A DNA stretch of 64,000 nucleotides, taken from Escherichia phage ESCO5. Each line of letters begins with the position of its first letter. The stretch's first letter is position 1. The position numbers were made by a program, and so were the translations under genes. Below are positions 3,020-34,994 of the stretch, piece after piece. The notes under the pieces are model-generated. The model worked only from the letters and a program-made list of their open reading frames with translations, had not been told where the DNA came from and made no database searches. The stretch lies in sequence record NC_047776.2, one strand, 5' to 3'.

Positions 3020-3568
3020 ATGCTGAATGCGGTAGAGTTGGCACCACTGATCCGAATTCTTGTTTATAACCCTTCTCAAGAAGTATTGCCAGATGCAATG
3101 CTGATTCAGATCATCCAGACTTGGATTGATATTATAGGGAATGAAGATAAGGATAAGTGTGCAGTATTGTGGAACAGCTTGATTTCTGTTTTAGAGTATT
3201 TATGGAACAACGATGTTCTTAATAACAATACTCAAACAGGAGGGGCTATGTCTCGCAGAGAAAAGATGGGTGAAGTCGAAGTTGAAGTTAAATTTAACAA
3301 CGGTCAAGTAACTTATAAGTCTCCGTGGGAAGATATTTATCATAACTATTTAAATGGTCTTATGGTTATTCCTGGGTGCACGGCAGGACGAGGAGCAACC
3401 AGTAAAGTTCTTATTGGTGGTGTTGATGCTCGTGAGATTGATCGAGTAAACAGCGATCCTAACTCTGTAAATGGTCTTGGTAATGTTGCAAGTGTTGATC
3501 GTAATACACGCAACGTTAATTATTTGCGAAATTATGGACCTGTTTCTTTTTATCGTAGGGACAAATAA
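3020..3568 (+). CDS. hypothetical structural (head-tail joining region) protein
   Basis: 182 aa ORF with AAGGTGGG RBS, in structural operon. Confidence 0.6.
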   Translation: MLNAVELAPLIRILVYNPSQEVLPDAMLIQIIQTWIDIIGNEDKDKCAVLWNSLISVLEYLWNNDVLNNNTQTGGAMSRREKMGEVEVEVKFNNGQVTYKSPWEDIYHNYLNGLMVIPGCTAGRGATSKVLIGGVDAREIDRVNSDPNSVNGLGNVASVDRNTRNVNYLRNYGPVSFYRRDK

Positions 3569-13512: not shown

Positions 13513-13985
13513 TGGCAGATTTAACTACGATCAAAGTTTCTGATCTTACACAAACAACCTCTGTGTCTGATACAGATTTCTTTGTAACAGATCAGGCTGG
13601 AATAACAAAGAAGACTTCTTTGAAAGTGCTGTTGAGTGGTGCAGGGGTAACTAGAAACCGTTTAAATGCACGGGGAACAGTAACTAGCACCTTGGCATTA
13701 GATATTAGTTCAGCAGAATATTTTTCGGCAACCTTATCTTCTGCAACGTGCACAATTAGTTTTACTAATATTCCAGTAGCAACGAATGCAGTTTTAAACT
13801 TTACTTTAGCTTTGCGTCAAGGAAGTGGCGCAAATAAAGTCGTATGGCCTTCTTCTGTAAAATGGAGTTTTGGTCGTTCCCCAGTTTTGAGTTATCGTCA
13901 AGGTGCAACAGACACTTTTGAGTTTATCAGTTATGATAATGGAGCAACTTGGACAGGTAGCTTAGTTTTAGCAGGAGTTATTTAA
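13512..13985 (+). CDS. hypothetical baseplate/tail protein
   Basis: 157 aa; start overlaps upstream stop. Confidence 0.5.
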   Translation: MADLTTIKVSDLTQTTSVSDTDFFVTDQAGITKKTSLKVLLSGAGVTRNRLNARGTVTSTLALDISSAEYFSATLSSATCTISFTNIPVATNAVLNFTLALRQGSGANKVVWPSSVKWSFGRSPVLSYRQGATDTFEFISYDNGATWTGSLVLAGVI

Positions 13986-16861
13986 TGTCAAGAGTTAAGC
14001 ACAATATTGACAACACGTTTCAGTTGATTGAAGGGTTGGTTCAGTTTTTGGAAAGAAATACTGGGCTTACCATAGATCCTACGGTTCAGCATTACATTAT
14101 CAACCCACAAAACGTATTGGCGAACAACAGACACTTTATTAACTGGACAGCGCAGGAAGGGCAACCAAACGGTGACGCTACTACCGAAGGTCAATCTGTG
14201 CTTATCACTGGTTTTGCTTATGCATATTTGGCTACAGGGGATAAAAAATATCTTGAATCTGCCGAGAAGTATTGGCAAGCCTATATAGATCACTTCTTCG
14301 GGGGCCAACCTATTCCTGATCCTCCAGCTAAATATCGTCCCAACTGGATCATCAATGGTAAAGAACCACGTTTAGCACATTACCCTCTCACAGATGATGG
14401 GTATCCTACGCACGGCGGGTTCAAAGGTAGCATGATGACTTGGATTAACGGAAGGACTGTTATTCCTAAAGGTGCACCGCATTGGGGGGAATACTTAGAT
14501 AAAGCTTGGTTTGCTTTCAATGGCAATCTTGGTTGGAACTCCGTTAACGCAACAGTTTATGCAACTAACCCAGATGGTTCAACTAACTGGAAAGAATATG
14601 GAGATCAGTGGGATGTTGAATGGATTATAGATCGTCTAGGACGTAAAGTTGATTGGGATGGTAACATCTTATCTACAGGTCACAGCTTTGCAGAATATGG
14701 AACAGTGCAACTTAAAAATGCTTCTGTGAACGGTGACTATAAATTCAACTACGCTACATGCAACCCTGTAGAACACGGTGGATATCTGCTTAAGCGTAAT
14801 GAGATGTGGCATAACCGTCCTGTAAACGTTCCGGTAGAATTAGGTTATCAAGATAATGCTTCCGATGCGGAAACGTGGTGGTGTGATGCAAACTACTTGA
14901 TGTATCAGATCACAGGAGAGAGAAAATACTGGCTTTGCTGGCAATCTTCTTTATTGCTGTGTCAAGACTACTCAAACATTGATATGTTTGATAAATTCTT
15001 CCGTAGATCTACGACAGCAATAATTCCTTTTACAGATGGTATCTCTTATGATTACTCATACCCATCTACAGCAATACCTAAATACTCTCGTGACGAATTA
15101 GGATACACAGTAATTCGACAAGATGTTGCAGCCCAAACAACTCTAGAACAACAGGCAGTTTGGTTCAGAGTGGATCAGAATTCAAAACTGCGTATTGAGT
15201 TTCAAGGTGTAGATGATGCAGGGGAAGGTATTCTTTTCCGTCCAGAGTTAGAATTAAGCAAGACTAAGAGTGAAACAGACACAGTGACATATCGTTGTGG
15301 CTTACCTCTTGGTGCAGCTAATATGACTAAGATGGATATACCTTTATCTAGTTTTATGCGCACCGAACCTCCTGGAGGTGGTGTATATATTATTGCTGAA
15401 CCTAGAATCATTGTTGACTGGGGAAGCAATACTGTGATACAATATAAATATGCAACTGGTATTGCTGGGACAAATAGTGATCAGATAGTTTCTGCTAATA
15501 TGGATTCAGATGGTGGTTTTACTGTTGGGTTTTGGTTAACACCAACTAAAACAGCCAATTTAAAATCTATTACGTATCGTTCATACGCAGATGATTTTAA
15601 CATCACTATTACGGATTCCGCAGGTTGGAGATGGTGGGCCATGTTAGAAAAAACAAATTCTACATGGGTTACTAAAGCTTTAAGTCCTGCTGATTTCAAA
15701 TTAAGTACTTGGCAACCTAATCACGATGACACAGAGACAAAACCTTCGTCAATAAACCTGACTGCTATTGATCAGATCAATATTGCATTGGATTCTGAAC
15801 CTGCAAATGGCTTGACAGGGGCAATCGATTTTTATTGCGTTAACGATATCCCATCTTTGTATTCTTCAGCCACTGGTGATGACTACACAATGTATTTCAG
15901 GGTTACAGTTTCATCTGAAAATCCTTATACAGCAAAACTTGGAGATTGTACAATACTGGACTACAAACTTGACAGTTTGAATTATACTCCAGGAATCATT
16001 CCATTTTCTAATATTAGCGATCCTAACACAGCATTATATGACGGTTGGCGCGGTATTCCTTACCCAGGTTATCAATACCCATCCTTATATTGTTTTAAAG
16101 GGAGAGATATTGATTGGGTTCGTATGAACAACAGTATAGACTTTTTATATGATTCACAAATGTGGTTTTATAATAAGTTTGCCCCTGTGATGCCTGGGCC
16201 AATGGCACAAGCTTATGTTTGGGATCGTTGGGATGCTCATAAATACGGAAACAAGAATGAGTTCACAATGTATCATTGGAACGATAAAGCTTGGGATGGG
16301 TATGAAGCACGAGCATTCTTCTGTGCGTGTCATACAGTATACGAACTTAAACAACGAGGAGCAGAAGTTCCTGAAAAACTTTTAACAGTTTGTAAAAACT
16401 GGATCAACTATCTGAAGTGGTTCCAAGACAACAACGAAGGAAGAACACCAACAATATTTTATCCCAATGGAGAAGTGGCAGCGCCTGTAGATGACTTTAC
16501 AAGTCACATGTCTGCGCTCTTTATGGCAGGATGTGCTATAATGGGGATGGCTGGATATGATTCAGAAATTCCTAACATTAAAATAGTAGCAGACCGCTGT
16601 TTTGAACTTATTCAGGAAAATTATATTGTTCTTGGTCCTAATCATGTTATGAATGGCTGTTGGAGTTCCGCTCCTAGACCAGATAGTGATAACGGAGTCT
16701 TCTTTGGCTTCCACGCTGGAGAGTTGTTACGTGGTTTTGGGTTGTATGCTTTATACAAAAAACTTAATCCCCAAAATGCATTACCTGTTTTGGATTCGAG
16801 CAATATTCCTGCACTTACTGTTTTGACAATGGCAAACATTAGTGTGGACGTTACCGAGTAA
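13985..16861 (+). CDS. tail fibre / candidate polysaccharide depolymerase
   Basis: 958 aa; large Trp/Tyr-rich protein in fibre cluster; AGGAG RBS. Confidence 0.5.
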   Translation: MSRVKHNIDNTFQLIEGLVQFLERNTGLTIDPTVQHYIINPQNVLANNRHFINWTAQEGQPNGDATTEGQSVLITGFAYAYLATGDKKYLESAEKYWQAYIDHFFGGQPIPDPPAKYRPNWIINGKEPRLAHYPLTDDGYPTHGGFKGSMMTWINGRTVIPKGAPHWGEYLDKAWFAFNGNLGWNSVNATVYATNPDGSTNWKEYGDQWDVEWIIDRLGRKVDWDGNILSTGHSFAEYGTVQLKNASVNGDYKFNYATCNPVEHGGYLLKRNEMWHNRPVNVPVELGYQDNASDAETWWCDANYLMYQITGERKYWLCWQSSLLLCQDYSNIDMFDKFFRRSTTAIIPFTDGISYDYSYPSTAIPKYSRDELGYTVIRQDVAAQTTLEQQAVWFRVDQNSKLRIEFQGVDDAGEGILFRPELELSKTKSETDTVTYRCGLPLGAANMTKMDIPLSSFMRTEPPGGGVYIIAEPRIIVDWGSNTVIQYKYATGIAGTNSDQIVSANMDSDGGFTVGFWLTPTKTANLKSITYRSYADDFNITITDSAGWRWWAMLEKTNSTWVTKALSPADFKLSTWQPNHDDTETKPSSINLTAIDQINIALDSEPANGLTGAIDFYCVNDIPSLYSSATGDDYTMYFRVTVSSENPYTAKLGDCTILDYKLDSLNYTPGIIPFSNISDPNTALYDGWRGIPYPGYQYPSLYCFKGRDIDWVRMNNSIDFLYDSQMWFYNKFAPVMPGPMAQAYVWDRWDAHKYGNKNEFTMYHWNDKAWDGYEARAFFCACHTVYELKQRGAEVPEKLLTVCKNWINYLKWFQDNNEGRTPTIFYPNGEVAAPVDDFTSHMSALFMAGCAIMGMAGYDSEIPNIKIVADRCFELIQENYIVLGPNHVMNGCWSSAPRPDSDNGVFFGFHAGELLRGFGLYALYKKLNPQNALPVLDSSNIPALTVLTMANISVDVTE

Positions 16862-16869
16862 GGGGTAAA

Positions 16870-19023
16870 ATGAAACAAGCTATATTTACTGTCACGCGAG
16901 ACAAGAGAGTAAATGCGAGTTCATTTAACTACACGACTGTTGATGGAACAGCAGTCGCTGGTAGAGATTATATTGCAAAATCGGGAACACTTGTGTTCCC
17001 TGATGATGCTGATTCTGCTACCATTGTGGTTGAAGTATTTGAACGACCAAAGAACTCAATAGATCTTAACTTCTCCCTCCAAGTTTCAGGGATTAGTCAA
17101 AATAACATGATGGTTGAAACGACCATCAACTGTATTATAACTACGATTCAAGAAAATACTACTCCAATAACTTGGACTACAAAAGACGTTAAAATGTTCT
17201 CTCCTATGTATTGGACAATAGATTCTCAAGCAACGGAAAGTTGTTCTATTGTATCTCATGGAGACTCTTTTACTGCAAGATTTGTAAACAGAACAACAGC
17301 AGGTTTGGCAGGGGTTATCTGGAGCACAGTTGACAAATATGACCATAAAGGTGTTGGGTATTTACCCCACACAGATTTAAGTTCAGAGAAACTTTGGTTT
17401 AAAATGGAAGTTAGTCAAAACATGCCAGGTTTTAAAGAAGAACCTTTGGTGCCAACTTTGACTGTAACTCTCTTGGATAAAAGTGTCCACTATGTTAGTT
17501 TAGGATTTTATGCTTCAGATATTTCAGAAGATGGTAAAACAGCTACAATCAAACTAGATTTTGGTAATATCTTCTCTGGTCCTAATAATGATATTCCTTT
17601 GGACATGAGTGCTGTAGATAATATTTTCTTCTCTTTGATTACAGCAAGGTATGAAGAAATAGAAGAGATTGTACCTATTGATAGTCAAGAGGCTTGGTTT
17701 ACTTTCACTCTTCTTGAACCTACTTCTGGTTATAGTATGATGAAAGTCAGTAACCTTGTCCAGCCTGAACATGATATTCGCATGTGCACATCTTATGACG
17801 ATATGTATAACCTGACTCCAGAGAGAGTTATTTATAATACATATGCGCTAGGTTATCGTGGAATGATTAACCATTACAACGGAATGTCTCACTATTATGA
17901 GTTCTCATGGAACGGAACATCTTGGGCTTTAAATAGATCTGTCTTCCTGAATCCAGCTACAGAAGCTTGGCTAAATAGTTTCCATTCTATAGCGAACGAG
18001 AAGGGTTACACAATAATGAACTCTTTAAGTTTTGAGTTGATGAGCACAGTTTGTCCTGTAGAATGGGTCCAGCATGATTGGAACGATGCTCTTGCAGCAA
18101 CAGGGTATGAGCCTCCTAGTTACGTGTTGTCTCCAACTATTGACGAAGGTATGAAATATTTGCAAAATGTTATTAATAAAATAGCATCTATTTCGCAAGC
18201 TAATAATATTCCAGTTGTCATTCAAATTGGTGAGCCTTGGTGGTGGTATAATACAGCGAGTAAAATGCCTTGTATATACGATTACACTACTAAACTAGCA
18301 TTCAACACAGAAACAGGTTTATTTGCACAAGATGTAGGAACAATAGATAATTATAAAACAGGAACACCGTTTGACGAATACTATGCATTTTTGTCTCGTA
18401 AACTAGGATTAAGAGTTGCAAAGTTTGCAACAGATACTAGATTAGCCTATCCTGGAGCTAAAGTTACATTATTACCATTTGTGCCATCCATTTTAGGTAA
18501 CGGTATGATGGAGTTTGTTAACTTCCCTAAAGATTATTATATCCCAGAAAACTTCGACTTTTATTGTTCAGAGTGTTATGACTGGTTGTTGGAAGGTAAG
18601 ATGGAAAAATCTTTTGACGCTATCACAATACCTAATGAACAATTAGGTTTTAGTTATGATAAGATACATTATCTTGCAGGTTTTGTTCCAGATGCTACTC
18701 TTGCACCTTTGTATAGCTTTGATCCTGAATCAAACTACCGCACGTATCTTTGGAAAATGATTATAGGTAACATAGTGTTGAACGCCAATAAGTTCAATGG
18801 ACTTACACAATATATATGGGCCTATCCTCAAATAATGCACGATTCTATCACGGTAGTTAATTCTCAATCCCAAGTTTTCTATATGGGTAACGTGCCTTTG
18901 AACGTTTATTTACAGGATATCACTCTTAAACAGGTAAATGTTGAGATTGCCACCATAAGTGGAATTACATTAGCCACTAAATCTGGAGAAGATTTAGTAA
19001 CAACACAAAAATTTTATATATAG
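16870..19023 (+). CDS. tail fibre protein
   Basis: 717 aa ORF in fibre cluster. Confidence 0.5.
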   Translation: MKQAIFTVTRDKRVNASSFNYTTVDGTAVAGRDYIAKSGTLVFPDDADSATIVVEVFERPKNSIDLNFSLQVSGISQNNMMVETTINCIITTIQENTTPITWTTKDVKMFSPMYWTIDSQATESCSIVSHGDSFTARFVNRTTAGLAGVIWSTVDKYDHKGVGYLPHTDLSSEKLWFKMEVSQNMPGFKEEPLVPTLTVTLLDKSVHYVSLGFYASDISEDGKTATIKLDFGNIFSGPNNDIPLDMSAVDNIFFSLITARYEEIEEIVPIDSQEAWFTFTLLEPTSGYSMMKVSNLVQPEHDIRMCTSYDDMYNLTPERVIYNTYALGYRGMINHYNGMSHYYEFSWNGTSWALNRSVFLNPATEAWLNSFHSIANEKGYTIMNSLSFELMSTVCPVEWVQHDWNDALAATGYEPPSYVLSPTIDEGMKYLQNVINKIASISQANNIPVVIQIGEPWWWYNTASKMPCIYDYTTKLAFNTETGLFAQDVGTIDNYKTGTPFDEYYAFLSRKLGLRVAKFATDTRLAYPGAKVTLLPFVPSILGNGMMEFVNFPKDYYIPENFDFYCSECYDWLLEGKMEKSFDAITIPNEQLGFSYDKIHYLAGFVPDATLAPLYSFDPESNYRTYLWKMIIGNIVLNANKFNGLTQYIWAYPQIMHDSITVVNSQSQVFYMGNVPLNVYLQDITLKQVNVEIATISGITLATKSGEDLVTTQKFYI

Positions 19024-19031
19024 GAGTAAAA

Positions 19032-21797
19032 ATGTCAACTACAATTACTAATTTACCCGAAACATCAAAAGTTAATGGTTCTGATTACCTGGTTTTAGAC
19101 CAACCTGATAAGACTGTTAAAAGCACAGTTTCCAACTTTCTTACTGACACTGGGGTGGTTTTAGCCACCCAGTTAAAAGATATTTCTGGAGCTACCAAGT
19201 ACCCAGAACTTCAAATGTCACGCTGGAGAGATGAAGGTGATCCTAGAGGATGGGGAGCAGTAGGTGACGGAGCAACAGACGATACCAATGCCATAACACA
19301 GCTTCTTGCTGCTATGCCTGATGGATGGATTATTGATGGGCGTAATCTCACTTTCAAGGTTACAACACTACCAGATATAAGCAAGTTTAAAAACGCTGCT
19401 TTTGTTTACGAGCGTATTGTTGGACAACCCCTTACTTATGTATCTGAAGGTTTCTTCGATGGAAATCTGACAAAGATTACGGATACACCATTTTACAATG
19501 CTTGGACGCAAGATAAGACGTTTGTTTATGACAATGTTATATATGCACCATTTATGGCTGGCGAACGTCATGGTGTACAAAACCTCCATGTAGCGTGGGT
19601 TAAATCAGGAGATGATGGACAAACTTGGTCTATGCCAGAATGGTTAACTCCAATTCATCCTGATTATAATGCCTCTTCAGCAAACAAAGTTAACTATCAT
19701 TGTATGAGTATGGGCGTATGTGGTAATCGCCTATATGCAGTCATCGAAACCCGTTATTTATCTAACATGCGATTGAAGAAAGCAGAACTTTGGTCACGTC
19801 CAATGCCTTATTATAGAAGGCCAACTGGAGGTATAACAATTAGTTCTGGGTCTACTACGGCGACGATTGTTTTAGAAAAGCATGGTCTTAAAGTTGGAGA
19901 TGCTGTTAACTTTTCCAATTCAGGTGCAACTGGTGTATCTGGAAATATGACTGTTGCATCTGTAATTAACAAGGATACATTTACTGTTACATTAGCGAGT
20001 GCTGCCACATCTAATATAGATAATACAGGAACTACTTGGCATTTTGGAACACGTTTCTGGGATAGCCCTTGGGAAATTACAGAATTACCAGATGTTGCCT
20101 ATTCTACTAATGCAGACTTATGTGTTACAGAAACCCATAGTTTTACAGTTATAGATGATGATAATTACACTTTTGCTGTGGGTTATCACAATGGTGATGT
20201 TTCCCCAAGAAGATTAGGTATTTTGTATTTCAATAATGCTTACTCTGACCCAAGTTCTTTTACTCGTAGAACAATTAGTCAAGAATATGCTGACAATGCA
20301 GCAGAACCCTGCATTAAATATTATGATGGAATTTTATATTTAACTACTAGGGGTACTTCAACTTCTGCTGCTGGTTCTACATTAGCAATGAGTGCTGACC
20401 TTGGAGAAAACTGGAATTACTTAAGATTTCCTAACAACGTTCATCATACAAACCTACCATTTGCAAAAGTTGGTAACTACCTTTATATCTTTGGTACAGA
20501 ACGTTCATTTGGAGAATGGGAAGGAGAAGAACTAGATAATAGATATAAAGGTACGTATCCTCGAACGTTTATGTGCAAGATTAATGTATCTGCATGGCCT
20601 GCATCTTTATCCGATGTTCAATGGTTTAATATCACCGATCAGATGTATCAAGGGCATATTGTTAATTCTGCATGTGGTGTTGGTTCGGTATGTGTTAAAG
20701 ATGGTTGGTTATATTATATCTTTGGAGGCGAAGATTTCTTATCTCCTTGGTCTATTGGGGATAATAGTAAAAAATTATGGTACAAGCACGATGGTCATCC
20801 AGCCGATTTATATAGCTATAGACTAAAGATTACCGAACATGATTTTGTATCACGTGATTTCAAATATGGAGCTACGCCAAACCGTACATTGCCTGTATCT
20901 ATGGGTACAGATGGGGTAAGGCATGTCTCAGCCCCTGTAACTTTTGATAATGATGTGCAAGTACACTCTTTAACAGTTACTGGTCTTGAGCATGATGGGA
21001 CACAACAATCTGCCGTTAGAATAAAATTAGATGGTGATTATGGGGTTGTTGCAAAAAATGTCCCAATAAAAAATCCTTCTGAACAGCGACTAATCTTATG
21101 TGGAGGAGAAACTCCTTACGTTACTGATGGATCGCTATTACAACTATATGGTTCAAACCATACGTATCCAAACAGAGCAGTTTTATATGCCCCAGGAGGA
21201 GCATATACCCAAAATAATTTCATGCCATATTTAGATGGACAAGTTGCATTAGGTGGTGCATCTAACAGATGGTCAGAAGTGTACGCATCTACAGGAACCA
21301 TTAATACTTCAGATGGAACATTAAAAACTAAACCTACAGAGATTGAAGATATTTTACTGAAAGCGTGGGAAGATATTCATGTAATCTCTTATCAATGGCT
21401 GAGTGCTATCGCGGAGAAAGGAGATTCTGCGCGTATTCATTTTGGTGTTATAGCTCAAGATGTAAGAGATATTCTGATTAATTATGGTTTAATGGATGAA
21501 AATAGCACTGATTGTAAGTATGCTTTTCTGTGTTATGATGAATACCCTGCTATGTACGATAGTGTTGTTACGGGACAAAAAGAAATCCCTTTATTTGATG
21601 ATGAAGGGAATGTTGTAATTGATGAAGAAGGTAATCCAGTAACAATCGTAGAAGATGTTGTAGAAACTATCGAAATAATTCCAGCAGGATCGCGATGGGG
21701 TATCCGCGCTGACCAAATGTTTTTTATTGAGATGGCTTATCAACGTAAAAAGTTAAAAGCTCTTGAAGAAAGACTTGCAACCCTGGAAAGTAAATAA
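19032..21797 (+). CDS. tailspike with C-terminal intramolecular chaperone (peptidase S74-like) domain
   Basis: 921 aa; GAVGDGATDDTNAI pectate-lyase-type motif; C-terminal TSDGTLKTK...IHFGVIAQDV...LEERLATLESK resembles self-cleaving chaperone of endosialidases and L-shaped fibres. Confidence 0.6.
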   Translation: MSTTITNLPETSKVNGSDYLVLDQPDKTVKSTVSNFLTDTGVVLATQLKDISGATKYPELQMSRWRDEGDPRGWGAVGDGATDDTNAITQLLAAMPDGWIIDGRNLTFKVTTLPDISKFKNAAFVYERIVGQPLTYVSEGFFDGNLTKITDTPFYNAWTQDKTFVYDNVIYAPFMAGERHGVQNLHVAWVKSGDDGQTWSMPEWLTPIHPDYNASSANKVNYHCMSMGVCGNRLYAVIETRYLSNMRLKKAELWSRPMPYYRRPTGGITISSGSTTATIVLEKHGLKVGDAVNFSNSGATGVSGNMTVASVINKDTFTVTLASAATSNIDNTGTTWHFGTRFWDSPWEITELPDVAYSTNADLCVTETHSFTVIDDDNYTFAVGYHNGDVSPRRLGILYFNNAYSDPSSFTRRTISQEYADNAAEPCIKYYDGILYLTTRGTSTSAAGSTLAMSADLGENWNYLRFPNNVHHTNLPFAKVGNYLYIFGTERSFGEWEGEELDNRYKGTYPRTFMCKINVSAWPASLSDVQWFNITDQMYQGHIVNSACGVGSVCVKDGWLYYIFGGEDFLSPWSIGDNSKKLWYKHDGHPADLYSYRLKITEHDFVSRDFKYGATPNRTLPVSMGTDGVRHVSAPVTFDNDVQVHSLTVTGLEHDGTQQSAVRIKLDGDYGVVAKNVPIKNPSEQRLILCGGETPYVTDGSLLQLYGSNHTYPNRAVLYAPGGAYTQNNFMPYLDGQVALGGASNRWSEVYASTGTINTSDGTLKTKPTEIEDILLKAWEDIHVISYQWLSAIAEKGDSARIHFGVIAQDVRDILINYGLMDENSTDCKYAFLCYDEYPAMYDSVVTGQKEIPLFDDEGNVVIDEEGNPVTIVEDVVETIEIIPAGSRWGIRADQMFFIEMAYQRKKLKALEERLATLESK

Positions 21798-21825
21798 TAC
21801 CGCTTAGGCGGTATTTCAATCTTTA
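21797..21825 (+). terminator. rho-independent terminator
   Basis: ATACCGC-ttag-GCGGTAT followed by TTCAATCTTT. Confidence 0.6.
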
Positions 21826-21845: not shown

Positions 21846-22109
21846 ATGGTTAAAGAGAAAAACGGTTTTAAAAAATTTATTCGCGGAATGTTCTGCACTT
21901 ACCCCGGCAACGGGGTAAGCTCTACGAAAGTCTGGAACGCTGTAGGCATGTCGGTTATGACAGGCATGTTTATCTTTTTAGGAATAGAAAAAGAAATTCC
22001 TGAATGGATGGGTTGGGCTTTTGTTTTCATGATAACCCCTTCTCGCCTCATGAAAAATCTTATTGATTTACGTTGGGGCAGATCACAATCTACCAAAGAG
22101 GATGACTAA
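21846..22109 (+). CDS. small membrane protein (two predicted TM segments)
   Basis: 87 aa; hydrophobic stretches AVGMSVMTGMFIFLGI and WMGWAFVFMITP; holin-like topology but located within the tail module. Confidence 0.45.
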   Translation: MVKEKNGFKKFIRGMFCTYPGNGVSSTKVWNAVGMSVMTGMFIFLGIEKEIPEWMGWAFVFMITPSRLMKNLIDLRWGRSQSTKEDD

Positions 22110-23596
22110 TGGACGAATATGGTTTGACAGATGCGGGATTTGTAATCCCGACTTTTGACGATGTTTTAAACAACTACATGACAGCAGTAAAAAACACATT
22201 TGGTGCAGATGCAGCCACTTCGGAAGATACTGTGATCGGACAACTGTTTAGAATAATTGCATACACAGATTACACATTGTGGGAAGGTATGCAAGGGGTT
22301 TATAATACTCAAACACTGGATGGTGCAGAAGGTATTTATCTTGACGAAATCTTTTCTAAACGTGGTTTCTATCGAGCAGGGGCAGCAGCAAGTACAGGTT
22401 ATGCATATGTTAAAAGTAATAACAAAGCAGCTTGGACTTACGAGTTAGGCACAGATATTTACTTCAACTCTGATAGCGATATGAACTACTATGTTAGCAC
22501 ACCAACTATGTTGAATGCTAAGATTGCAGCTTATCAAATTTCTCGTGCTAATGCCACTGCTACAGGTGTTCCAAATATTACTTTTTATGCACAAAGTGCG
22601 ATAGATGGAGGACTAAACAGTAAAACACTTGCACCTGGTTCTTCTACATTTATAGCCGATCTTGAAACTTTTATCAAGGCAAACTTAACAGAGGCTGATC
22701 GTAGTCTTGTATTTTCTGATTCTGGTAACTTGTCAATTGGTTTTACTTCTTTAACCAGTGATACTCCAGTGGGACTAGTAACTCCTATCAAATTTTATGC
22801 TAGTGTTCCAGTTGGAACCAAATGGAGTGAAATTCCGGTAGTTGCAGCAGAGAAAGGATACAATCCGGTGGGTGTGGAGTCTATTACAGGGATATCTTCT
22901 ACCTTTACAGGTTATCTTGATAGTGGTAACTTCTATTCGTTTTCTCCTGGTCGAGATGTTGAGACAGATGCAGAATTCCGCTCTCGTTTCAATGACAACG
23001 TTGACGAAGCTAACGCAGGGACACGAGCAGCTATTGTGAAAGCTCTGTTACTTACAGATGGTGTTACTAAGGTGAAGATTTATGATAACCCTACGTTACA
23101 TGATCAAGAACATGCTCCAGCTATGACTTTCCAGACTATAGTCTATGGAGGGAGTGCTGAAGAAGTTGCTGAAGTTATTTACAAAACTAAACCAATCAAC
23201 AGTTTGACACATGGAACAACTAACATAACTGTTACAACGGAAGACGGAGGACAAGAAATTATTCGTTTTTCTCCTGGTGCTTCTGCTACGTATTCCGTAA
23301 AACTTGTTTATCAAACTGTCAACGGAACAACTTTAAGTGGAACAGAAAAACAAAACATTGTAGAAGCTTTACAAAACCTGCAAGCTTACTTTGAATTAGG
23401 TTCTTCAGTAACGAACGATCAAATCAAAGGTGTTATTTATGCAGCACTTGCTTTTGGACGCTTGACTTCTCTTCGTGTTTATGTTAAACTTAATACTGAG
23501 GATGACAGTAAATATACAGAGAATAATATAGTTCCTGCTTATAATGTTGTCCCTTCTTTTGACCTTGATAACATTTCTTACGAGTATGGAGTGTAA
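22109..23596 (+). CDS. baseplate wedge protein (gpJ/gp6-like)
   Basis: 495 aa; N-terminal region typical of Baseplate_J family; followed by gpI-like gene. Confidence 0.6.
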   Translation: MDEYGLTDAGFVIPTFDDVLNNYMTAVKNTFGADAATSEDTVIGQLFRIIAYTDYTLWEGMQGVYNTQTLDGAEGIYLDEIFSKRGFYRAGAAASTGYAYVKSNNKAAWTYELGTDIYFNSDSDMNYYVSTPTMLNAKIAAYQISRANATATGVPNITFYAQSAIDGGLNSKTLAPGSSTFIADLETFIKANLTEADRSLVFSDSGNLSIGFTSLTSDTPVGLVTPIKFYASVPVGTKWSEIPVVAAEKGYNPVGVESITGISSTFTGYLDSGNFYSFSPGRDVETDAEFRSRFNDNVDEANAGTRAAIVKALLLTDGVTKVKIYDNPTLHDQEHAPAMTFQTIVYGGSAEEVAEVIYKTKPINSLTHGTTNITVTTEDGGQEIIRFSPGASATYSVKLVYQTVNGTTLSGTEKQNIVEALQNLQAYFELGSSVTNDQIKGVIYAALAFGRLTSLRVYVKLNTEDDSKYTENNIVPAYNVVPSFDLDNISYEYGV

Positions 23597-23598
23597 AA

Positions 23599-24228
23599 AT
23601 GGCAGTGAGTGTTGACCATGTAACAACTTGGGCCAGTATCAATGAAGATGTTAAAAACCTTCTGATTGAAGATTTTAAATCTTCTCCTAACATTGTCAAG
23701 CTCCTCTACATCGTATCCAGTGAAAAGCAAAAGATAGATCAGGCAATGATCTATCTTGCTAAACACCGCTTGATCTCCACAGCCACAGGCAAATACCTAG
23801 ATATCTTAGGAGAAGAAATGGGGATCGAACGTAATGGCTCTGATGATGAAGAGTATAGAACAATATTAAAAATCAGGGCTTACCGCGTAGCCTCATCGGG
23901 GACTCGTGGTGACATAATTGATATCTTCGCCCGTTTCACAGGAACAGAGCGTGAAACGCTTAATACTTACGTAGGTTTGAATAAAACCTTTGATGTGTTT
24001 TTCTACAACCTGTGTCTTCAATCTGATCAAGCTTTAGAGCAGTTGCTAAGTGTTTTCCCTATTATTAGTAGCTACCGTCTTGGAGCAAAAGCAGGATCAG
24101 CTTTTGGTTTTAGTTCTTATTATGCTGCCAAACCGCCTCATGGTATTGGTGGTTTAGGTTCCCTGTACATGGAATCTACTGGGGATGAAACAGGACGCAT
24201 GTGTACGCTTCTCAAGCAAATAGATTAA
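23599..24228 (+). CDS. baseplate wedge protein (gpI-like)
   Basis: 209 aa; position after J-like gene, before fibre gene (P2 order J-I-H-G). Confidence 0.5.
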   Translation: MAVSVDHVTTWASINEDVKNLLIEDFKSSPNIVKLLYIVSSEKQKIDQAMIYLAKHRLISTATGKYLDILGEEMGIERNGSDDEEYRTILKIRAYRVASSGTRGDIIDIFARFTGTERETLNTYVGLNKTFDVFFYNLCLQSDQALEQLLSVFPIISSYRLGAKAGSAFGFSSYYAAKPPHGIGGLGSLYMESTGDETGRMCTLLKQID

Positions 24229-26193: not shown

Positions 26194-29100
26194 ATGGCAA
26201 CATTCCCAACATATCCAGCAACGTCTCTCGAACAGGGCGTAGACCTGGTTATTTTCTCATCTAACCAACTCCATGATGTTATTAATGGAAGTGCTACAGA
26301 GAGTATTGAAACAGAATCAGGGTTGATACCAACCCTGAGAAAATCCCTTGTTGACAACTTTTTCTTTAAAAGCCCATTGGATTGGGCGCAAGGCACAAAC
26401 GAAACAGTTTTTAACCAACTACGTTATTTTCAGAATGGGGTATTGAGCGGTTATTATTATGCTCCTAATGCTACATTGGTAAACCCAATTCCTATGCAAG
26501 GGACTCCAGTAGGAGATAACAACTGGGTATTGTGGGGACTGAAGACAGAACAACTAGCAACAGAAGTCACCCCTTGGGTATATTCTGGTGCAACTGGTTA
26601 TGAAACAGTAATCAGTCCTCCCTACATCTTTGATAGTGCTATTGTTACAATCAATGGTGTTATTCAGGTTCTGGGAGAAGCTTTCCGCATAGAAGATAGT
26701 AAAATCATTTTATCTGAACCTTTGGGACATGATCCTGCAACAGGACTGCCAAACAAGCTTTTTGCCTATATTGGTAAAATCGTAGCTTCCGCAGATACAG
26801 ATCCTAACTTAGAAAACCGTCTTGTCAGTTTAGAAACAAAAACTGAAGAACTGACAGAAAACATGGATAAAGTACCTTTACAAACTATTGCTCGTAAATA
26901 CGGTTTGTTGGATGACGAAGTAGCTTACGCAACAGCGGGTCAATCATTAACAGGGATTAAAGCTCTGTATGATCCGGTAGCACAATCTTCCTACACATTG
27001 CCTCCTAACATCACAGGGACTTTAACATCTTTGTCTGTTTCTGGAGTAATGACTTATTCTGGCGGATCTGTAGATCTTTCTGCATTAGCTGTTGAACGTG
27101 GACAGTTTGTTCATTTGCCTACAAGCTTTGGTAATAATGTAACTCTGACAGCTAAAAATCAGACGATTGGGCGTGGCGCTGGTCGCTATCGTTGGGCGGG
27201 AAGTTTACCAAAAAGTATTTTAGCTTCTGATACATTGGAAACAAGTGGTGGATTAGGTCCAAATGCATGGGTTCTAACTAATACAGAAGGACTGTTAACC
27301 CCTCGTGGTGGAACATACAACGATTTATTCGATGTTGTCCGCTTATCAGAATTTGCTAACAATACAACTACCTATACCACACCAGAAGCAGCTTTCCAGG
27401 CGGCACTGTTAGCAGCAAAAGCTTCGAAAAGTAAGATTCTCGACGCTTACGGTTGTGATATGACTTTCACGACAAGCTCTTTTGATATTCAAGATATCAC
27501 TTTGCGTGGGGGTGTGTTCCGTGGTCAACGCGATTATCGTGTGCAAAATGCTACAGTAGAAGGCACAACTTTCCGTAACTCTCGTGTTATGTATTGGGGT
27601 GGTGCTGTGCGCATGTTCGATTGTTTGTGGGACGGTGCTCCTCGCGCAGGTCAAGTTGGTAGCTTGGTATTCCAAGGAAACCCAATATCAGGTACTTTTG
27701 AAATTGATAATTGTACTTTTAAAAACGGGTTATATGGCATCCTTCAACAAGGAACAGGGGAACCAGTAACACGCGGTGTCTTCCGTAACCTTACCTTCAT
27801 GGACATGCAAGGTGATGCAATAGAACTGAACGTCATCAATAAACATTATGATGATGGTTGTGTGATTGAGAATATTTACCTGTCTAATATTGATGGGACT
27901 AACGCTCCTATTCCTCTGTCCAACTGGGGTATCGGTATTGGTGTGGCTGGTAAAGGACCATATGGTTACGGAATTCCTGATGATCAATATTGCAAGAATA
28001 TTACAATTCGTAACGTTTTTGCAAAACGTTGTCGTCAGATTGTCCACGTAGAAGTTGGTCGTAATATTTCTATCGAAAACATTCATGGCGATCCAGATCA
28101 AACTGTATCTGTTGGGACAGGTTTGGCAACTGGCGCAGTTGTAATGTATGGAAGTAAAGATTTTACGATTGATGGTGTTTACGGAGAGCCTAAAACAGAC
28201 GGTAGCACACTTGCAAGTAATATCCGTATGATTTATTTGGAGTGGGGAACTAACGCAGTTCTGGATGAAGAGGGCAATCCGGTAGTTCCGGCACAGGGCA
28301 GACCTTCAAACCCATGCTTTAACTATTCTGTTCGTAACATTCACACCAAAACTGGGCGTGTTTTTGCAGGAGTTTCCGCTGGGCCAGGTTATGAAAACAG
28401 AGTCAGCTTTGAGAATATCCATTGTGCTGCGTTGCAGTTGTTCGGTGTAGCTTCTTGGCTTTCAATGTCTAACATCACCTGTAATATCTTTGATTGTGTT
28501 GGTCAACCTGAATCTGGTCCAGGGACATTTTATGATGGATTCTTCCGTAGAGAAAAATCTGTTCTTGAGATGGTTAACGTAAACTGTTACCCAGATGGCA
28601 AGACTATGGTTACTGGTCGCCCACAGTGGAGCCGTTGCCGTTACTCTGATATTCATCGTGTCAACTGTAATGTTGAAGCTAATATGTATACCAATATCGC
28701 AGGTGGTATTGGAGCTATTGTAGGGACAACTGGCAAAGTTTATTACTTAGAGCCTAACCCTAGCCGAAACATTGATGGGATGCATTTCCCAACAGGGAAG
28801 GAGTTTGACAAAGGGGATATGATAGTCAAAGCGGATAATACGTTCTTCCTTGTAACAACAAGTGGGGCATACATTCCAGATATCCCAGCTTTCGGTATTC
28901 GAGCTACACAAGCAGGAGATACCTTCCTGACACAGAACTTGACTCCTAATGGGACAGCAACAAACGCTTCTTGGTTGTATCACTATCCTCTGTCAGCAGG
29001 AACACGTATCCGTATTCCTGGTGCTGGTGTAGGTGGAGCAGATTTGGACACAGTTATTACTCGTGCACCTTATCAAGATAATGATACGTGGACTAACCCA

Positions 29101-29247
29101 GTTAAAATAGACATTGCAGATCCAATTGTAACGCCTACGAGTGCTGGAGTTAGAATCAAAACCATACCTAACGATTCTAGTAATGTTTCTGTAGGTAATA
29201 CTGCGGTTATTCGCCCAACACCAGTGGTAGATGTGCCAACAACCTAA
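26194..29247 (+). CDS. tailspike, right-handed parallel beta-helix (pectin-lyase fold)
   Basis: 1017 aa; repeated NxxVxNxxF / GxxI beta-helix rungs (e.g. VFRNLTFMDMQGDAIELNVINKHYDDGCVIENIYLSNIDGTN). Confidence 0.6.
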   Translation: MATFPTYPATSLEQGVDLVIFSSNQLHDVINGSATESIETESGLIPTLRKSLVDNFFFKSPLDWAQGTNETVFNQLRYFQNGVLSGYYYAPNATLVNPIPMQGTPVGDNNWVLWGLKTEQLATEVTPWVYSGATGYETVISPPYIFDSAIVTINGVIQVLGEAFRIEDSKIILSEPLGHDPATGLPNKLFAYIGKIVASADTDPNLENRLVSLETKTEELTENMDKVPLQTIARKYGLLDDEVAYATAGQSLTGIKALYDPVAQSSYTLPPNITGTLTSLSVSGVMTYSGGSVDLSALAVERGQFVHLPTSFGNNVTLTAKNQTIGRGAGRYRWAGSLPKSILASDTLETSGGLGPNAWVLTNTEGLLTPRGGTYNDLFDVVRLSEFANNTTTYTTPEAAFQAALLAAKASKSKILDAYGCDMTFTTSSFDIQDITLRGGVFRGQRDYRVQNATVEGTTFRNSRVMYWGGAVRMFDCLWDGAPRAGQVGSLVFQGNPISGTFEIDNCTFKNGLYGILQQGTGEPVTRGVFRNLTFMDMQGDAIELNVINKHYDDGCVIENIYLSNIDGTNAPIPLSNWGIGIGVAGKGPYGYGIPDDQYCKNITIRNVFAKRCRQIVHVEVGRNISIENIHGDPDQTVSVGTGLATGAVVMYGSKDFTIDGVYGEPKTDGSTLASNIRMIYLEWGTNAVLDEEGNPVVPAQGRPSNPCFNYSVRNIHTKTGRVFAGVSAGPGYENRVSFENIHCAALQLFGVASWLSMSNITCNIFDCVGQPESGPGTFYDGFFRREKSVLEMVNVNCYPDGKTMVTGRPQWSRCRYSDIHRVNCNVEANMYTNIAGGIGAIVGTTGKVYYLEPNPSRNIDGMHFPTGKEFDKGDMIVKADNTFFLVTTSGAYIPDIPAFGIRATQAGDTFLTQNLTPNGTATNASWLYHYPLSAGTRIRIPGAGVGGADLDTVITRAPYQDNDTWTNPVKIDIADPIVTPTSAGVRIKTIPNDSSNVSVGNTAVIRPTPVVDVPTT

Positions 29248-29311: not shown

Positions 29312-31336
29312 ATGAATTTAACAAGACCTAATAGTGCGATAGCCGATCTAGTAGAAGCTACTTATCGAAAACGTCGCAGTTTTGAGGCAGGTTTTACATT
29401 ACGTAATTCCCGTGAAGTTTTGCTGTTAGCGGCAGAAGGGAATTATTACCAATGGAAAGGAACTTTTCCTAAAGTAGTTCCAGCAAACTCTACGCCAGCC
29501 ACCACAGGTGGTATTTCTTCCCTTGCATGGCAAAGTGTTGGGACCGCTGATGATATAGCAATTATCAATGCCAAGTTTACGGCAATGCAGCAACAGATTG
29601 ATGATCTGTCGGAAACAATACCTGAAGCTGGTAAATCGGCTTATCAGATCGCACTTGATAATGGTTTTGTTGGAACAGAAGCACAATGGCTTGCTTCTTT
29701 GAAAGGGGATACTGGTGCTCAACTTAATATTAAAGGATCATTAGCAAGCACTAGTGAACTACCATCTACAGGTAACGTAGCAGGTGATGGTTATATTGTA
29801 GGAGATGTAATCTACGCTTGGGATGGGGCTGTTTGGAAACTTATCTCTTCTCTTGGGCCAGAAGGGAAATCAGCTTACGAGGTATGGTTAGCAGATGGTA
29901 ATACAGGATCTGTTTATGACTTTCTTGCCTCTATAAAAGGTGATAAAGGAGACGTTGGTCCTACAGGTCCACAGGGTGCACCTGGTGTCAACGCTAATGG
30001 TTTTGATTACCGTGGAGATTTGCCTTCTACAAGTAACTTACCACAACCTAACTCTGAAAACGTAAGCCAAGCTTATTCTATTAATGGTAATCTTTATGTC
30101 TCTAATGGGACAGCTTGGGTCAACATGGGTAATATTGTTGGTCCTCAAGGTCCACAAGGTGAGGCAGGTAAAGACGGTCTAGATGGAACAGATGGAGACG
30201 AAGGGAAATCTGCATATCAAAGTTGGCTGGATGCTGGTAATGAAGGGACAGAAGTAGATTTTATTGCCTCACTTAAAGGTCCAAAAGGAGACAAGGGTGA
30301 TCAAGGAGAGCGAGGTCCACAAGGTGAACTAGGTCCACAAGGACCAGTGGGTGCAACAGGATCAGGTTTAGAGATTATCGGGGTTCTGAACAGCGAAGCT
30401 GAACTTCCTCCTACTGGAGAAGTAGGTGATGCATATAAAATTAATAATGATTTGTATGTTTGGGTTCAAGATGCTACAGAATGGATGAATGTAGGCAGTC
30501 TTGGAGGAACATCAATTACAGCTAAAGGTCATGTTCCGAACAGTGAAGCTCTCCCTGTTTATAATAACTACGGTGATGCCTATTTAACTGAAGACACTAG
30601 TAATCTTTACATCTATACCTACGATCAAGACACCAATTCCGCATCTTTTGTTGACATGGGAAGTATTAAAGGCGACAAAGGTGAAAAAGGGGATAAAGGA
30701 GATAAGGGTGATCCTGGAACAAACGGAACCAACGGTACTGATGGGACCAACGGTAAGGACGGCGCACAGTGGTTTGTAGCAACAACTAATCCAGTCACAG
30801 GAGACGGTGTTATCAATGATTACGCCTTCAATACTACCACTGGAGCAGTATTTAAGAAAACAGATTCTTCTACGTGGACACTTATAGGAACTCTTCCTAG
30901 TATACCAGAAGCCCCTCAAGACGGCTTGACGTATGGTCGTTCTGATGGAAACTGGATCGAAATATCAGGATCAGATCCTACGGAAGCTATAACACCAACT
31001 AGAGTTACAGCAGGTTTCATGGAACTTGAAACAACTACTGCCAACTCTGGAGCATCTTGGACTCCTTCTGGAACTTCCAATATGTATGTTGTTACAGTAA
31101 CTGACGCTCTGACAGTTGGAGCATGGCCTGGTGTCACTGGCTCTACAAAACCTAAAGCGTTTTCAGCAATGATTTATTTGATTCAAGATACAACGGGACA
31201 CACGGTTACACTAGATGCGTCTTATGGAGCACTAAATGATACAGAAATAGCAACTACTGCTAACGCAGTAACAATTTTGCAATTAACGTATCCTGGTGTG
31301 GGTGATATCGTGGACATGGTTGTTGTAACACGATAA
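29312..31336 (+). CDS. tail fibre with collagen-like Gly-X-Y repeats
   Basis: 674 aa; runs such as GPQGPQGEAGKDGLDGTDGDEG and KGDKGEKGDKGDKGDPGTNGTNGTDGTNGKDG; three copies of GKSAY...(W)L(A)S(L)KG(D)KGD repeat. Confidence 0.7.
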   Translation: MNLTRPNSAIADLVEATYRKRRSFEAGFTLRNSREVLLLAAEGNYYQWKGTFPKVVPANSTPATTGGISSLAWQSVGTADDIAIINAKFTAMQQQIDDLSETIPEAGKSAYQIALDNGFVGTEAQWLASLKGDTGAQLNIKGSLASTSELPSTGNVAGDGYIVGDVIYAWDGAVWKLISSLGPEGKSAYEVWLADGNTGSVYDFLASIKGDKGDVGPTGPQGAPGVNANGFDYRGDLPSTSNLPQPNSENVSQAYSINGNLYVSNGTAWVNMGNIVGPQGPQGEAGKDGLDGTDGDEGKSAYQSWLDAGNEGTEVDFIASLKGPKGDKGDQGERGPQGELGPQGPVGATGSGLEIIGVLNSEAELPPTGEVGDAYKINNDLYVWVQDATEWMNVGSLGGTSITAKGHVPNSEALPVYNNYGDAYLTEDTSNLYIYTYDQDTNSASFVDMGSIKGDKGEKGDKGDKGDPGTNGTNGTDGTNGKDGAQWFVATTNPVTGDGVINDYAFNTTTGAVFKKTDSSTWTLIGTLPSIPEAPQDGLTYGRSDGNWIEISGSDPTEAITPTRVTAGFMELETTTANSGASWTPSGTSNMYVVTVTDALTVGAWPGVTGSTKPKAFSAMIYLIQDTTGHTVTLDASYGALNDTEIATTANAVTILQLTYPGVGDIVDMVVVTR

Positions 31337-34050: not shown

Positions 34051-34052
34051 GA

Positions 34053-34080
34053 AAAGGAGCCATTTGGCTCCTTTCTTTTA
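34053..34080. terminator. bidirectional terminator between convergent arms
   Basis: AAAGGAGCC-attt-GGCTCCTTT with T-rich tracts on both sides; plus-strand gene ends 34050, minus-strand gene ends 34107. Confidence 0.75.
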
Positions 34081-34106
34081 TAAAAACTCTTTATAAATCA
34101 ATAAGA

Positions 34107-34994
34107 TCAGAACGGAATATCATCATCGAAGTCCATCGGAGGTTCTTCTTGATTACTTGGAGTTGGTTCTGGTTGTGGTTCAGGCTTTTTAACTTCTTTC
34201 TTCTCTTCTTTCTTAGGTTGTTCTGCGGAACCACGAATGGCAGCAGCAACTTTATCAGACAGAGCCAGAACTTTACGAGCAGAATCAATCAGATCTTCTA
34301 CAGATACAGTCTTAATGGTATGGTCTTTACAAGCATTAAGGATAGCGTGACCAACAGATGCCCCAAGATCATAATCATTAATATCAACGCCACGAGATTC
34401 AGCAATTTCAGATTTCAGCGTGACAGTTGCAGATTGAACAACCCCAGCGATATCGAAAGCATCGCCTTTAACACCATTACGAATCAGTTCCAGTGCACCA
34501 TTTACTGCGTGACCAGTTTCCAGACCTACAGTATCACGTTTTTTATAGGACTGTTTAGGAGCAGCATCGTTGGAACCTTTATTGCCAGAAGATTTGTTAG
34601 ACTTCTGAACACCATCGGTAGACAATACTGTAATACGAGATTTTTTAGTATTGTAGTAAGTTTTACCGCCTTTATTATCAACGCGATCAATATCAATACT
34701 TACTTCTACACCTTTTTCAATAGTGATCCAGTTATCACCTTCTTTGACTTGCAGGTTTTCATAACCTTCTTTCAGTTCAATGTCACCAAGAGAAATCCAA
34801 ACACCTTTCTCCTCTGGTTTAGCACCTTTCTCTTTCAGAACAAGAGAAGCTCGGTGAGTTGAAACAATCGTTTTTCCTTCCCAATGAAAAGTTTTAGGTT
34901 CAGCGAATTTATCCAGTTTAACGTAGTCTACGATACCAGTTGCATAAGTTACGGTTTTGCCTTTACGATCAGTTTCAGTATTAATTACGGACAT
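34107..34994 (-). CDS. ssb: single-stranded DNA-binding protein
   Basis: 295 aa; C-terminus EEPPMDFDDDIPF identical to the E. coli SSB tail motif; Gly/Ser/Lys-rich linker; N-terminal domain divergent. Confidence 0.75.
   Translation of the reverse strand: MSVINTETDRKGKTVTYATGIVDYVKLDKFAEPKTFHWEGKTIVSTHRASLVLKEKGAKPEEKGVWISLGDIELKEGYENLQVKEGDNWITIEKGVEVSIDIDRVDNKGGKTYYNTKKSRITVLSTDGVQKSNKSSGNKGSNDAAPKQSYKKRDTVGLETGHAVNGALELIRNGVKGDAFDIAGVVQSATVTLKSEIAESRGVDINDYDLGASVGHAILNACKDHTIKTVSVEDLIDSARKVLALSDKVAAAIRGSAEQPKKEEKKEVKKPEPQPEPTPSNQEEPPMDFDDDIPF

Follow-up and report, generated by a model that had tools for sequence, protein, structure and literature searches.

A predicted self-cleaving intramolecular chaperone domain at the C-terminus of the endosialidase tailspike precursor of Escherichia phage vB_EcoM_REC

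The C-terminal domain (CTD) of the endosialidase tailspike precursor, an ortholog of gp143 of phage phi92, is in all likelihood a self-cleaving intramolecular chaperone of the Peptidase S74/ICA type, as judged from its sequence (Table 1). The 64,000-nucleotide stretch analysed here (the window) is 100% identical to the DNA of Escherichia phage vB_EcoM_REC, and the tailspike gene corresponds, also at 100% identity, to positions 85505-88270 of record OM386667.1, in which it is labelled endo-N-acetylneuraminidase (REC_00244). A first-pass annotation of the window had pointed to this 921-aa tailspike ORF, and every peptide quoted there is indeed present in its translation. Since the gene was already deposited and annotated, the observation is correct but ordinary; the domain family, the cleavage mechanism and the gene itself have all been described before. 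Its value lies in correct annotation, according to which the mature capsule depolymerase of REC should comprise residues 2-759 (~84 kDa), while constructs that express it for therapy or diagnostics against K1/K92 E. coli need residues 760-921 if the trimer is to fold. The REC paper ties the endosialidase to the broad host range of the phage and reports that a cocktail including REC protected chicken embryos against APEC; correct enzyme boundaries are thus useful to further work on REC.

Table 1. Coordinates of the tailspike precursor gene, its predicted domains and residues, and the adjoining hairpin
Feature	Residues	Position in window	Strand	Basis or remark
Endosialidase tailspike precursor gene	1-921	19032..21797	+	921-aa ORF; predicted 102.5 kDa; REC_00244, phi92 gp143 ortholog
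N-terminal module	1-75	19032..19256	+	No Pfam domain; outside crystallised part (4HIZ begins at aa 75)
Endosialidase N-terminal extension	76-142	19257..19457	+	PF12218 End_N_terminal, E 1e-33; holds GAVGDGATDDTNAI motif
Catalytic six-bladed beta-propeller	143-600	19458..20831	+	PF12217, E 1e-212
Beta-barrel inserted in propeller	259-341	19806-20054	+	PF12195, E 4e-38
Stalk, triple beta-helix	603-759	20838..21308	+	PF12219 End_tail_spike, E 1.2e-62; terminates at T759
D735	735	21234-21236	+	In stalk; 24 residues before scissile Thr
R746	746	21267-21269	+	In stalk; 13 residues before scissile Thr
Predicted scissile bond	T759|S760	21306..21311	+	phi92 and K1F record boundaries; 4HIZ terminus; Thr-Ser of T5 pb1
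C-terminal intramolecular chaperone domain (CIMCD / ICA / Peptidase S74)	760-921	21309..21794	+	162 aa, 18.4 kDa; 3GW6
Conserved S74 core	760-819	21309..21488	+	PF13884, E 1.7e-12; nucleophile S760, general base K765 (nt 21324-21326)
Long beta-hairpin 'tentacle'	~826-884	21507..21683	+	Boundaries inferred by alignment with K1F T977-H1026
C-terminal helix, ending AYQRKKLKALEERLATLESK	~896-921	21717..21794	+	Boundaries from alignment to K1F C-terminus
8-bp hairpin AATACCGC-TTAG-GCGGTATT		21796..21815		Overlaps stop codon; kept in ECO340P1

The endosialidase domains and the borders of the gene

At the DNA level, the gene shares 96.8% identity with phi92 gp143, with amino-acid differences at 30 of 921 positions, and the 921-aa protein matches the PHROG tail spike family phrog_1171 (E 2e-300); no matching NCBIfam model was found with either the whole protein or its CTD. 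In Pfam, the protein contains the full endosialidase domain set (PF12218, PF12217, PF12195 and PF12219), each member scoring far above threshold, and residues 75-759 are nearly identical to the crystallised phi92 enzyme 4HIZ (1574 bits). Moreover, the residues H180, R393, E425, R440 and R491 align with the catalytic residues H350, R549, E581, R596 and R647 listed for K1F (PMC12632334), with a chain offset of 244 that is consistent at all five positions. Thus, the motif that the first-pass annotation noticed in the N-terminal part belongs to the End_N_terminal domain, the centre that it called possibly sialidase-like is a full endosialidase beta-propeller and, given that the five sialidase catalytic residues are intact, its tentative reading of the protein as a capsule-degrading tailspike is right. 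phi92 gp143 has been reported to depolymerise alpha-2,8 and alpha-2,8/2,9 polysialic acid (PMC13450770, PMC10269720; also stated in a GenBank note), and by its sequence the protein described here is a tailspike predicted to degrade the polysialic acid (K1/K92) capsule.

The N-terminal module probably serves for attachment to the baseplate or to a fibre scaffold, a role derived from the general architecture of tailspikes (PMC5380687). The first ~150-250 nt of the gene are also present, at 92-99% identity, in over 60 related phages, in which the rest of the gene is unrelated. Regarding regulatory elements, the promoters and terminators predicted around the gene were no more numerous than in shuffled sequence. 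A promoter-like site on the minus strand (19038..19011, 11/12 match) was taken as a chance occurrence. The hairpin at the end of the gene is listed by the terminator scan on the minus strand only, among a number of sites not above that in shuffles, and could possibly act as a weak terminator or an RNA-stability element.

The C-terminal domain and its predicted cleavage site

The Pfam profile Peptidase_S74 (PF13884) matches residues 760-819 with a score of 47.8 bits, the gathering cut-off being 22, and 57 of its 58 positions (1-57) are covered. This is the profile search that the first-pass annotation had proposed as a check of its assignment. The S74 domain follows directly upon End_tail_spike and reaches the end of the protein; its first residue is S760 (nt 21309) and its last is K921 (nt 21794), the stop codon occupying 21795-21797. 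The C-terminal placement given by that annotation therefore holds, whereas its start at 21260 does not, since this position is the third base of codon 743, inside the stalk and 49 nt upstream of the true start; likewise, its length of about 170 residues compares with 162 by the S760-K921 boundaries.

Over their entire length, the C-terminal 180 residues can be aligned with residues 104-275 of the K1F stalk-plus-chaperone chain 3GW6 (E 5.8e-51), while the chaperones of GA-1 (3GUD, E 1.4e-11) and T5 (4UW8, E 4e-6) match more weakly. The likeness to endosialidase and L-shaped tail fibre chaperones noted in the first-pass annotation is thus borne out, with full-length homology in the case of K1F. 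The tentacle carries a near-repeat, DDEGNVV / DEEGNPV, at residues 856-870, and the corresponding K1F loop T977-H1026 has been reported to be essential for endosialidase folding (PMC3742443). The C-terminal helix is expected to build a trimeric coiled coil at the centre of the chaperone, which is the role reported for its counterparts in T5 and K1F (PMC4690869). A profile built from an alignment of eight diverse phage proteins matches the domain with an E of 5.5e-87 and, when it was run against the six-frame translation of the window, no second S74 domain was found, the next-best match having an E of 0.65. Single-sequence AlphaFold2 prediction of residues 720-921 gave a mean pLDDT of 39.2, a poor model being expected for one chain of an intertwined trimer folded without an alignment.

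The published cleavage mechanism involves five residues, each of which (D735, R746, T759, S760 and K765) is found in register. The Ser/Lys dyad, in which the Lys lies five residues after the nucleophilic Ser, has been defined previously (PMC3742443, PMC4690869), and the spacing of D735, R746 and T759 equals that of D1239, R1250 and T1263 in T5 pb1, in which the bond cleaved is likewise Thr-Ser (PMC4690869). In the eight-protein alignment, S760 and K765 are conserved in 8/8 sequences, T759 in 7/8, R746 in 6/8 and D735 in 5/8. The position aligned to S760 is occupied by Ala in the structures 3GW6 and 4UW8, which for 4UW8 corresponds to the S1264A mutant (PMC4690869). Moreover, the GenBank record of phi92 distinguishes a mature endosialidase, endoN92*, from a released 'endoN92-CTD' and divides the two at the aligned T|S; the K1F record contains separate mature and CTD peptides, endoNF-CTD beginning at the aligned Ser; and the last residue of the phi92 crystal chain 4HIZ is the equivalent of T759. 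From the phi92 ortholog, whose processing is taken from its GenBank annotation and from this chain terminus, and whose 162-residue domain differs at 5 positions, we infer that the REC protein would be cleaved at T759|S760.

By reference to the K1F and T5 structures, the following mechanism of folding and cleavage can be proposed. Three precursor chains would come together via the chaperone domain, the C-terminal helices of which would build the coiled coil while the long hairpin tentacles embrace the stalk, and this assembly would nucleate the triple beta-helix of the stalk and, hence, the whole trimer. Only once the stalk is correctly folded, R746 of the neighbouring chain would be placed between D735 and T759 to form the oxyanion hole, and K765 would activate S760, so that the T759-S760 bond is cut. 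The cut would free the 18.4-kDa chaperone and leave a mature subunit of ~84 kDa in a stable trimer which, mounted on the baseplate, would break down the capsule.

Possible cassette exchange at the locus and alternative fates of the domain

In phage ECO340P1, the same slot harbours an unrelated 536-aa gene without a Pfam match, and the beginning of the endosialidase gene is retained. The new stop codon is followed by a frameshifted, non-coding remnant of the chaperone's final ~285 nt together with the hairpin, and this remnant carries deletions of 2 nt and 11 nt within the near-repeat of the tentacle. A match of at least 90% identity to the CTD is limited to 13 records, namely 12 with the full-length gene and ECO340P1. 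A CTD relic as a general trait of relatives devoid of the endosialidase was accordingly rejected, ECO340P1 being the lone case.

It is conceivable, if rather improbable, that the chaperone coding sequence and the conserved N-terminal module act as homology arms by which tailspike cassettes are swapped among phi92-like and phAPEC8-like phages. Were this true, the endosialidase cassette would be ancestral at the locus in the ECO340P1 lineage, and one replacement breakpoint would lie at the start of the tentacle.

Alternative explanations of the domain have to be weighed against self-cleavage. The residues could belong to a true S74 homolog that assists trimerisation and yet escapes cleavage, remaining as the distal tip of the mature spike. 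Receptor recognition has been attributed by some authors to the C-terminal domains of receptor-binding proteins (reviewed in PMC5380687), and the C-terminal fin of the P22 tailspike has been proposed to be an uncleaved auto-chaperone (PMC4690869), both of which lend some plausibility to such a tip. Nevertheless, it is very unlikely here, as all five cleavage residues are present at their aligned positions, the annotation of the 97%-identical phi92 ortholog describes a processed protein, its 4HIZ chain stops at the aligned Thr, and the two CTDs are separated by just five non-catalytic substitutions. A merely accidental or low-complexity resemblance, in which the C-terminus would be simply a coiled-coil tail, could appeal only to the short helix-forming stretch at the C-terminus, but it is ruled out by the matches to Pfam (E 1.7e-12), to 3GW6 and to the eight-protein profile, with nothing better than 0.65 elsewhere in the window.

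It could also be argued that the released chaperone retains a function after cleavage, for instance in folding the other tail fibres or spikes of the phage in trans, given that the window has a single S74 domain and codes for no fewer than four further large proteins of the fibre or spike type. This proposal, too, is very unlikely. Most related phages are devoid of the endosialidase cassette, having kept the first 150-250 nt, and yet have been deposited as independent isolates; in Justusliebigvirus phages that lack a gp143 homolog, four tail fibres are still over 97% identical to their phi92 counterparts (REC paper); and ECO340P1 retains merely a frameshifted relic of the domain. Natural variants without the endosialidase thus already suggest normal assembly of the other spikes, and no support for a role in trans was found in the literature consulted. 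Self-cleavage of a chaperone that acts on its own tailspike therefore remains by far the preferred reading.

Comparison with known systems

The closest known system is phi92 gp143 (endoN92, the catalytic part of which is PDB 4HIZ), which occupies the same position, between gp142-like and gp144-like genes, and shares the domain order and an identical cleavage site, TINT|SDGTLK. Between the two CTDs there are 5 differences in 162 positions, and the catalytic residues are not among them. In turn, the propeller and barrel region here shows a three-residue insertion (N213 A214 S215) and 11 substitutions relative to phi92 gp143, while there are eight substitutions in the stalk and three in the N-terminal module. 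The phages belong to different genera, Phapecoctavirus in the case of REC and Justusliebigvirus in that of phi92.

K1F endoNF (3GW6; cut before S911) is ~50% identical across the CTD and shares the Ser/Lys dyad, the upstream Arg, Asp and Thr, the tentacle and the C-terminal helix, although its tentacle is eight residues shorter than the one described here. An abstract in Virology from 2015 reportedly describes the K1F enzyme as processive and alpha-2,8-specific, and the phi92 enzyme as non-processive and able to cut alpha-2,9 linkages too. Moreover, K1F is a podovirus whose N-terminal attachment domain differs (PMC12632334).

More distant relatives carry a chaperone of the same family on unrelated cargo. 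The L-shaped tail fibre pb1 of T5 (4UW8) and the neck appendage of GA-1 (3GUD) have the S74 core with the same T-S...K spacing, and T5 pb1 likewise has an Arg at -13 and an Asp at -24; however, their cargo is a non-enzymatic fibre or neck appendage and their tentacles are much shorter. Sequence identity within the pair of T5 and K1F chaperones is only ~18% (PMC4690869). Finally, the ICA domain of the eukaryotic protein MYRF, likened here by its published description, has the same Ser/Lys dyad and undergoes trimerisation-dependent auto-cleavage, but it belongs to a transcription factor anchored in a membrane and has no long tentacle loop. Once MYRF has been cut, the N-terminal fragment moves to the nucleus, while the C-terminal fragment bearing the ICA domain stays in the ER membrane (PMC3742443).

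Domain architecture and endosialidase body

The 921-aa ORF lies among tail and baseplate genes that are all encoded on the same strand, and its Pfam domain set is complete and in order (see the table). The first-pass annotation had proposed a C-terminal Peptidase S74 chaperone resembling those of endosialidases and L-shaped tail fibres, and the profile search that it suggested does recover this domain, the Pfam model covering the conserved core alone. Both resemblances hold as well: positions 104-275 of the 3GW6 chain, which comprises the K1F stalk and chaperone, match the last 180 residues of the ORF whole (E 5.8e-51), while weaker yet significant matches of the C-terminus are found in the T5 L-shaped tail fibre pb1 (4UW8), the GA-1 neck-appendage chaperone (3GUD), a tail spike protein (9VVR) and a phage tail fiber (7Y5S). 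A profile of eight diverse chaperone-bearing phage proteins, this one included, matches the ORF with E 5.5e-87, whereas elsewhere in the window, translated in six frames, it finds nothing better than E 0.65; the domain is therefore real rather than a chance match. The NCBIfam search returned no model for the 921-aa protein. The position first assigned to the domain (21260..21797, about 170 aa) was slightly off and is corrected to 21309..21794, 162 aa.

The central region, initially called possibly sialidase-like, is, as judged from its sequence, an endosialidase: the phi92 endosialidase structure 4HIZ aligns over residues 75-759 at 1574 bits, and the K1F structures score about 790 bits against the protein. 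Moreover, H180, R393, E425, R440 and R491 align with H350, R549, E581, R596 and R647, five catalytic or substrate-binding residues of K1F (PMC12632334). The protein displays every sequence-testable feature of membership in the S74/CIMCD family as well as in the phage endosialidases. Relative to phi92 gp143 and 4HIZ, an N-A-S insertion, accompanied by S216 and N218 substitutions, is located in the propeller segment …HPDY–KVNY…, which is shorter again in K1F.

Features of the endosialidase locus (window coordinates unless indicated)
Feature	Coordinates	Strand	Residues	Pfam support
Large fibre or spike candidate	13985-16861	+
Calx-beta, 'non-contractile tail sheath' N-terminal and TIM-barrel protein, phi92 gp142-like, upstream neighbour	16870..19023	+	717 aa
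Endosialidase ORF	19032..21797	+	921 aa
Conserved N-terminal module	19032-19279
End_N_terminal			76-142	E 1e-33
End_beta_propel			143-600	E 1e-212
N-A-S insertion	19668-19676		213-215
End_beta_barrel, inserted within propeller			259-341	E 4.1e-38
End_tail_spike			603-759	E 1.2e-62
Peptidase_S74 "chaperone of endosialidase"			760-819	E 1.7e-12, 47.8 bits (cut-off 22)
Region homologous to ECO340P1 relic (ECO340P1 locus 3112-3447)	21510-21797
Tentacle near-repeat DDEGNVV / DEEGNPV	21597-21641		856-870
8-bp hairpin	21796-21815
Small membrane protein, downstream	21846..22109	+
Baseplate_J-like wedge protein, downstream	22109..23596	+
DUF2612 baseplate protein, downstream	23599..24228	+
Large fibre or spike candidate	26194-29247	+
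Large fibre or spike candidate	29312-31336	+
Large fibre or spike candidate	31378-34050	+

Predicted cleavage site and maturation

On four lines of evidence, the predicted chaperone boundary falls between T759 and S760. In its GenBank record, the phi92 protein is divided into two mature peptides, endoN92* (aa 2-756) and endoN92-CTD (aa 757-918), of which the second is labelled an intramolecular triple-beta-helix chaperone domain; their boundary corresponds to T759–S760 once a 3-residue insertion is allowed for. The K1F record likewise annotates endoNF* and endoNF-CTD, and a tblastn match beginning at S760 starts exactly on the first codon of endoNF-CTD. The crystallised phi92 chain (4HIZ) ends in ...STGTINT, a terminus aligned with T759. 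In T5 pb1, the cleaved bond is Thr1263-Ser1264, and it has been proposed that Ser1264 is activated by Lys1269 and that Arg1250 of the neighbouring chain forms the oxyanion hole between Asp1239 and Thr1263, so that cleavage needs a correctly folded triple beta-helix (PMC4690869). S760, K765 (+5), T759 (-1), R746 (-13) and D735 (-24) reproduce the T5 spacing. The eight aligned proteins comprise this one, those of phi92, K1F, K1G (63D-type sialidase) and K1-5 (K5 lyase), a Kuttervirus tail fibre, a Vibrio phage protein and a Klebsiella phage fibre. All eight have S760 and K765, seven have T759, six R746 and five D735. The structures 3GW6 and 4UW8 still carry the chaperone, and in each the position aligned with S760 is Ala; in 4UW8 this is the S1264A mutation (PMC4690869). 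Independently, work on MYRF describes the Ser/Lys pair as a catalytic dyad and the Arg as stabilising the oxyanion, all correctly positioned only once trimerisation has occurred (PMC3742443).

Homology, domain order and conserved mechanistic residues are all present in the protein. By analogy with K1F, T5 and phi92, cleavage, a trimer requirement and enzymatic activity would be expected. In the most likely course, the 102.5-kDa precursor would trimerise via the chaperone, which would template the triple beta-helix of the stalk, and the folded stalk would complete the active site. A cut at T759-S760 would then release an 18.4-kDa domain and leave an 83.9-kDa mature subunit (computed masses).

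Neighbouring spike candidates and probable cassette exchange

The 717-aa upstream protein is presumably a further fibre component that binds or degrades glycans; it carries 'non-contractile tail sheath' domains, yet the closest genomes bear the myovirus name vB_EcoM and phi92 is a contractile-tailed myophage. Among the four large fibre or spike candidates, one lacks a Pfam match, one contains RCC1-like repeats plus Big_2, and two carry Tail_spike_N (TSP1/Gp66), one of these with a collagen-repeat stretch. None of the four yielded an S74 chaperone with the eight-protein profile in the six-frame translation and, thus, the endosialidase is the only predicted self-cleaving spike of this multi-spike apparatus. 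GC skew and coding strand switch together at about 34050-34110, where the structural module ends: large ORFs run on the + strand up to about 34.05 kb and on the - strand from about 34.1 kb onwards. No tRNA genes were found across the whole window.

The first 150-250 nt of the endosialidase gene are 92-99% identical in more than 60 Stephanstirmvirinae genomes, past which the gene diverges completely and different spikes are carried; the full endosialidase is found in only 12 of the 79 matching records. This fits a conserved attachment part with exchangeable receptor-binding bodies. In the related Escherichia phage ECO340P1, the endosialidase slot is occupied by a 536-aa gene that is unrelated and lacks a Pfam match. 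The last ~285 nt of the chaperone persist 3' of its stop as a frameshifted, non-coding relic, together with the downstream hairpin. The relic is nearly identical in sequence, with 2-nt and 11-nt deletions exactly within the tentacle near-repeat, which suggests slippage between repeats. It is the fossil of a tailspike cassette that was replaced, one breakpoint lying near aa 827. Together with the shared 5' module, it fits modular tailspike cassette exchange, a picture already accepted for these phages (PMC5380687). Conserved in ECO340P1, the hairpin, AATACCGC-TTAG-GCGGTATT, overlaps with the endosialidase stop codon. As the + strand T-run behind it is poor, its role may be that of a weak terminator or of an RNA-stability element.

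Relation to known endosialidases

The identification of a chaperone-bearing endosialidase is correct and already known, as the gene is identical to one deposited and annotated. The ORF and the window's first 25 kb share 100% identity with Escherichia phage vB_EcoM_REC (OM386667.1, genus Phapecoctavirus), in which the counterpart REC_00244 is annotated "endo-N-acetylneuraminidase". REC arose by laboratory recombination between phages ESCO5 and ESCO37, its ESCO5-derived segment includes the endosialidase gene, and REC_00244, 96% identical to phi92 endoN, was proposed as the reason for its broad host range (PMC10269720). One recombination junction lies at 117,085-117,476 in the paper's own coordinates (PMC10269720), which end at 143,665 versus 156,300 nt in the GenBank record; if both systems coincide, it would fall at about 50600-51000 of the window, an uncertain placement.

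The near-identical phi92 ortholog has already been crystallised and its processing products annotated. The ORF shares 96.8% DNA identity with phi92 gene 143, and the proteins differ at 30 amino-acid positions, the 3-residue insertion among them. Phi92 gp143 is described as an endosialidase cutting both alpha-2,8 and alpha-2,9 polysialic acid (PMC13450770, PMC10269720), and a 2026 cryo-EM study, fitting a predicted model into density, assigns it to the tip of baseplate fibre I (PMC13450770). Only five substitutions separate the two chaperone domains (I793V, P853T, F855L, V861N and I882V), all outside the catalytic set. The K1F stretch aligned with the tentacle hairpin (about aa 826-884), T977-H1026, is a loop reported to be essential for endosialidase folding and lacking in most other ICA domains (PMC3742443). 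Owing to the near-repeat, the tentacle is 8 residues longer than that of K1F, and the phi92 domain shares the same extra length.
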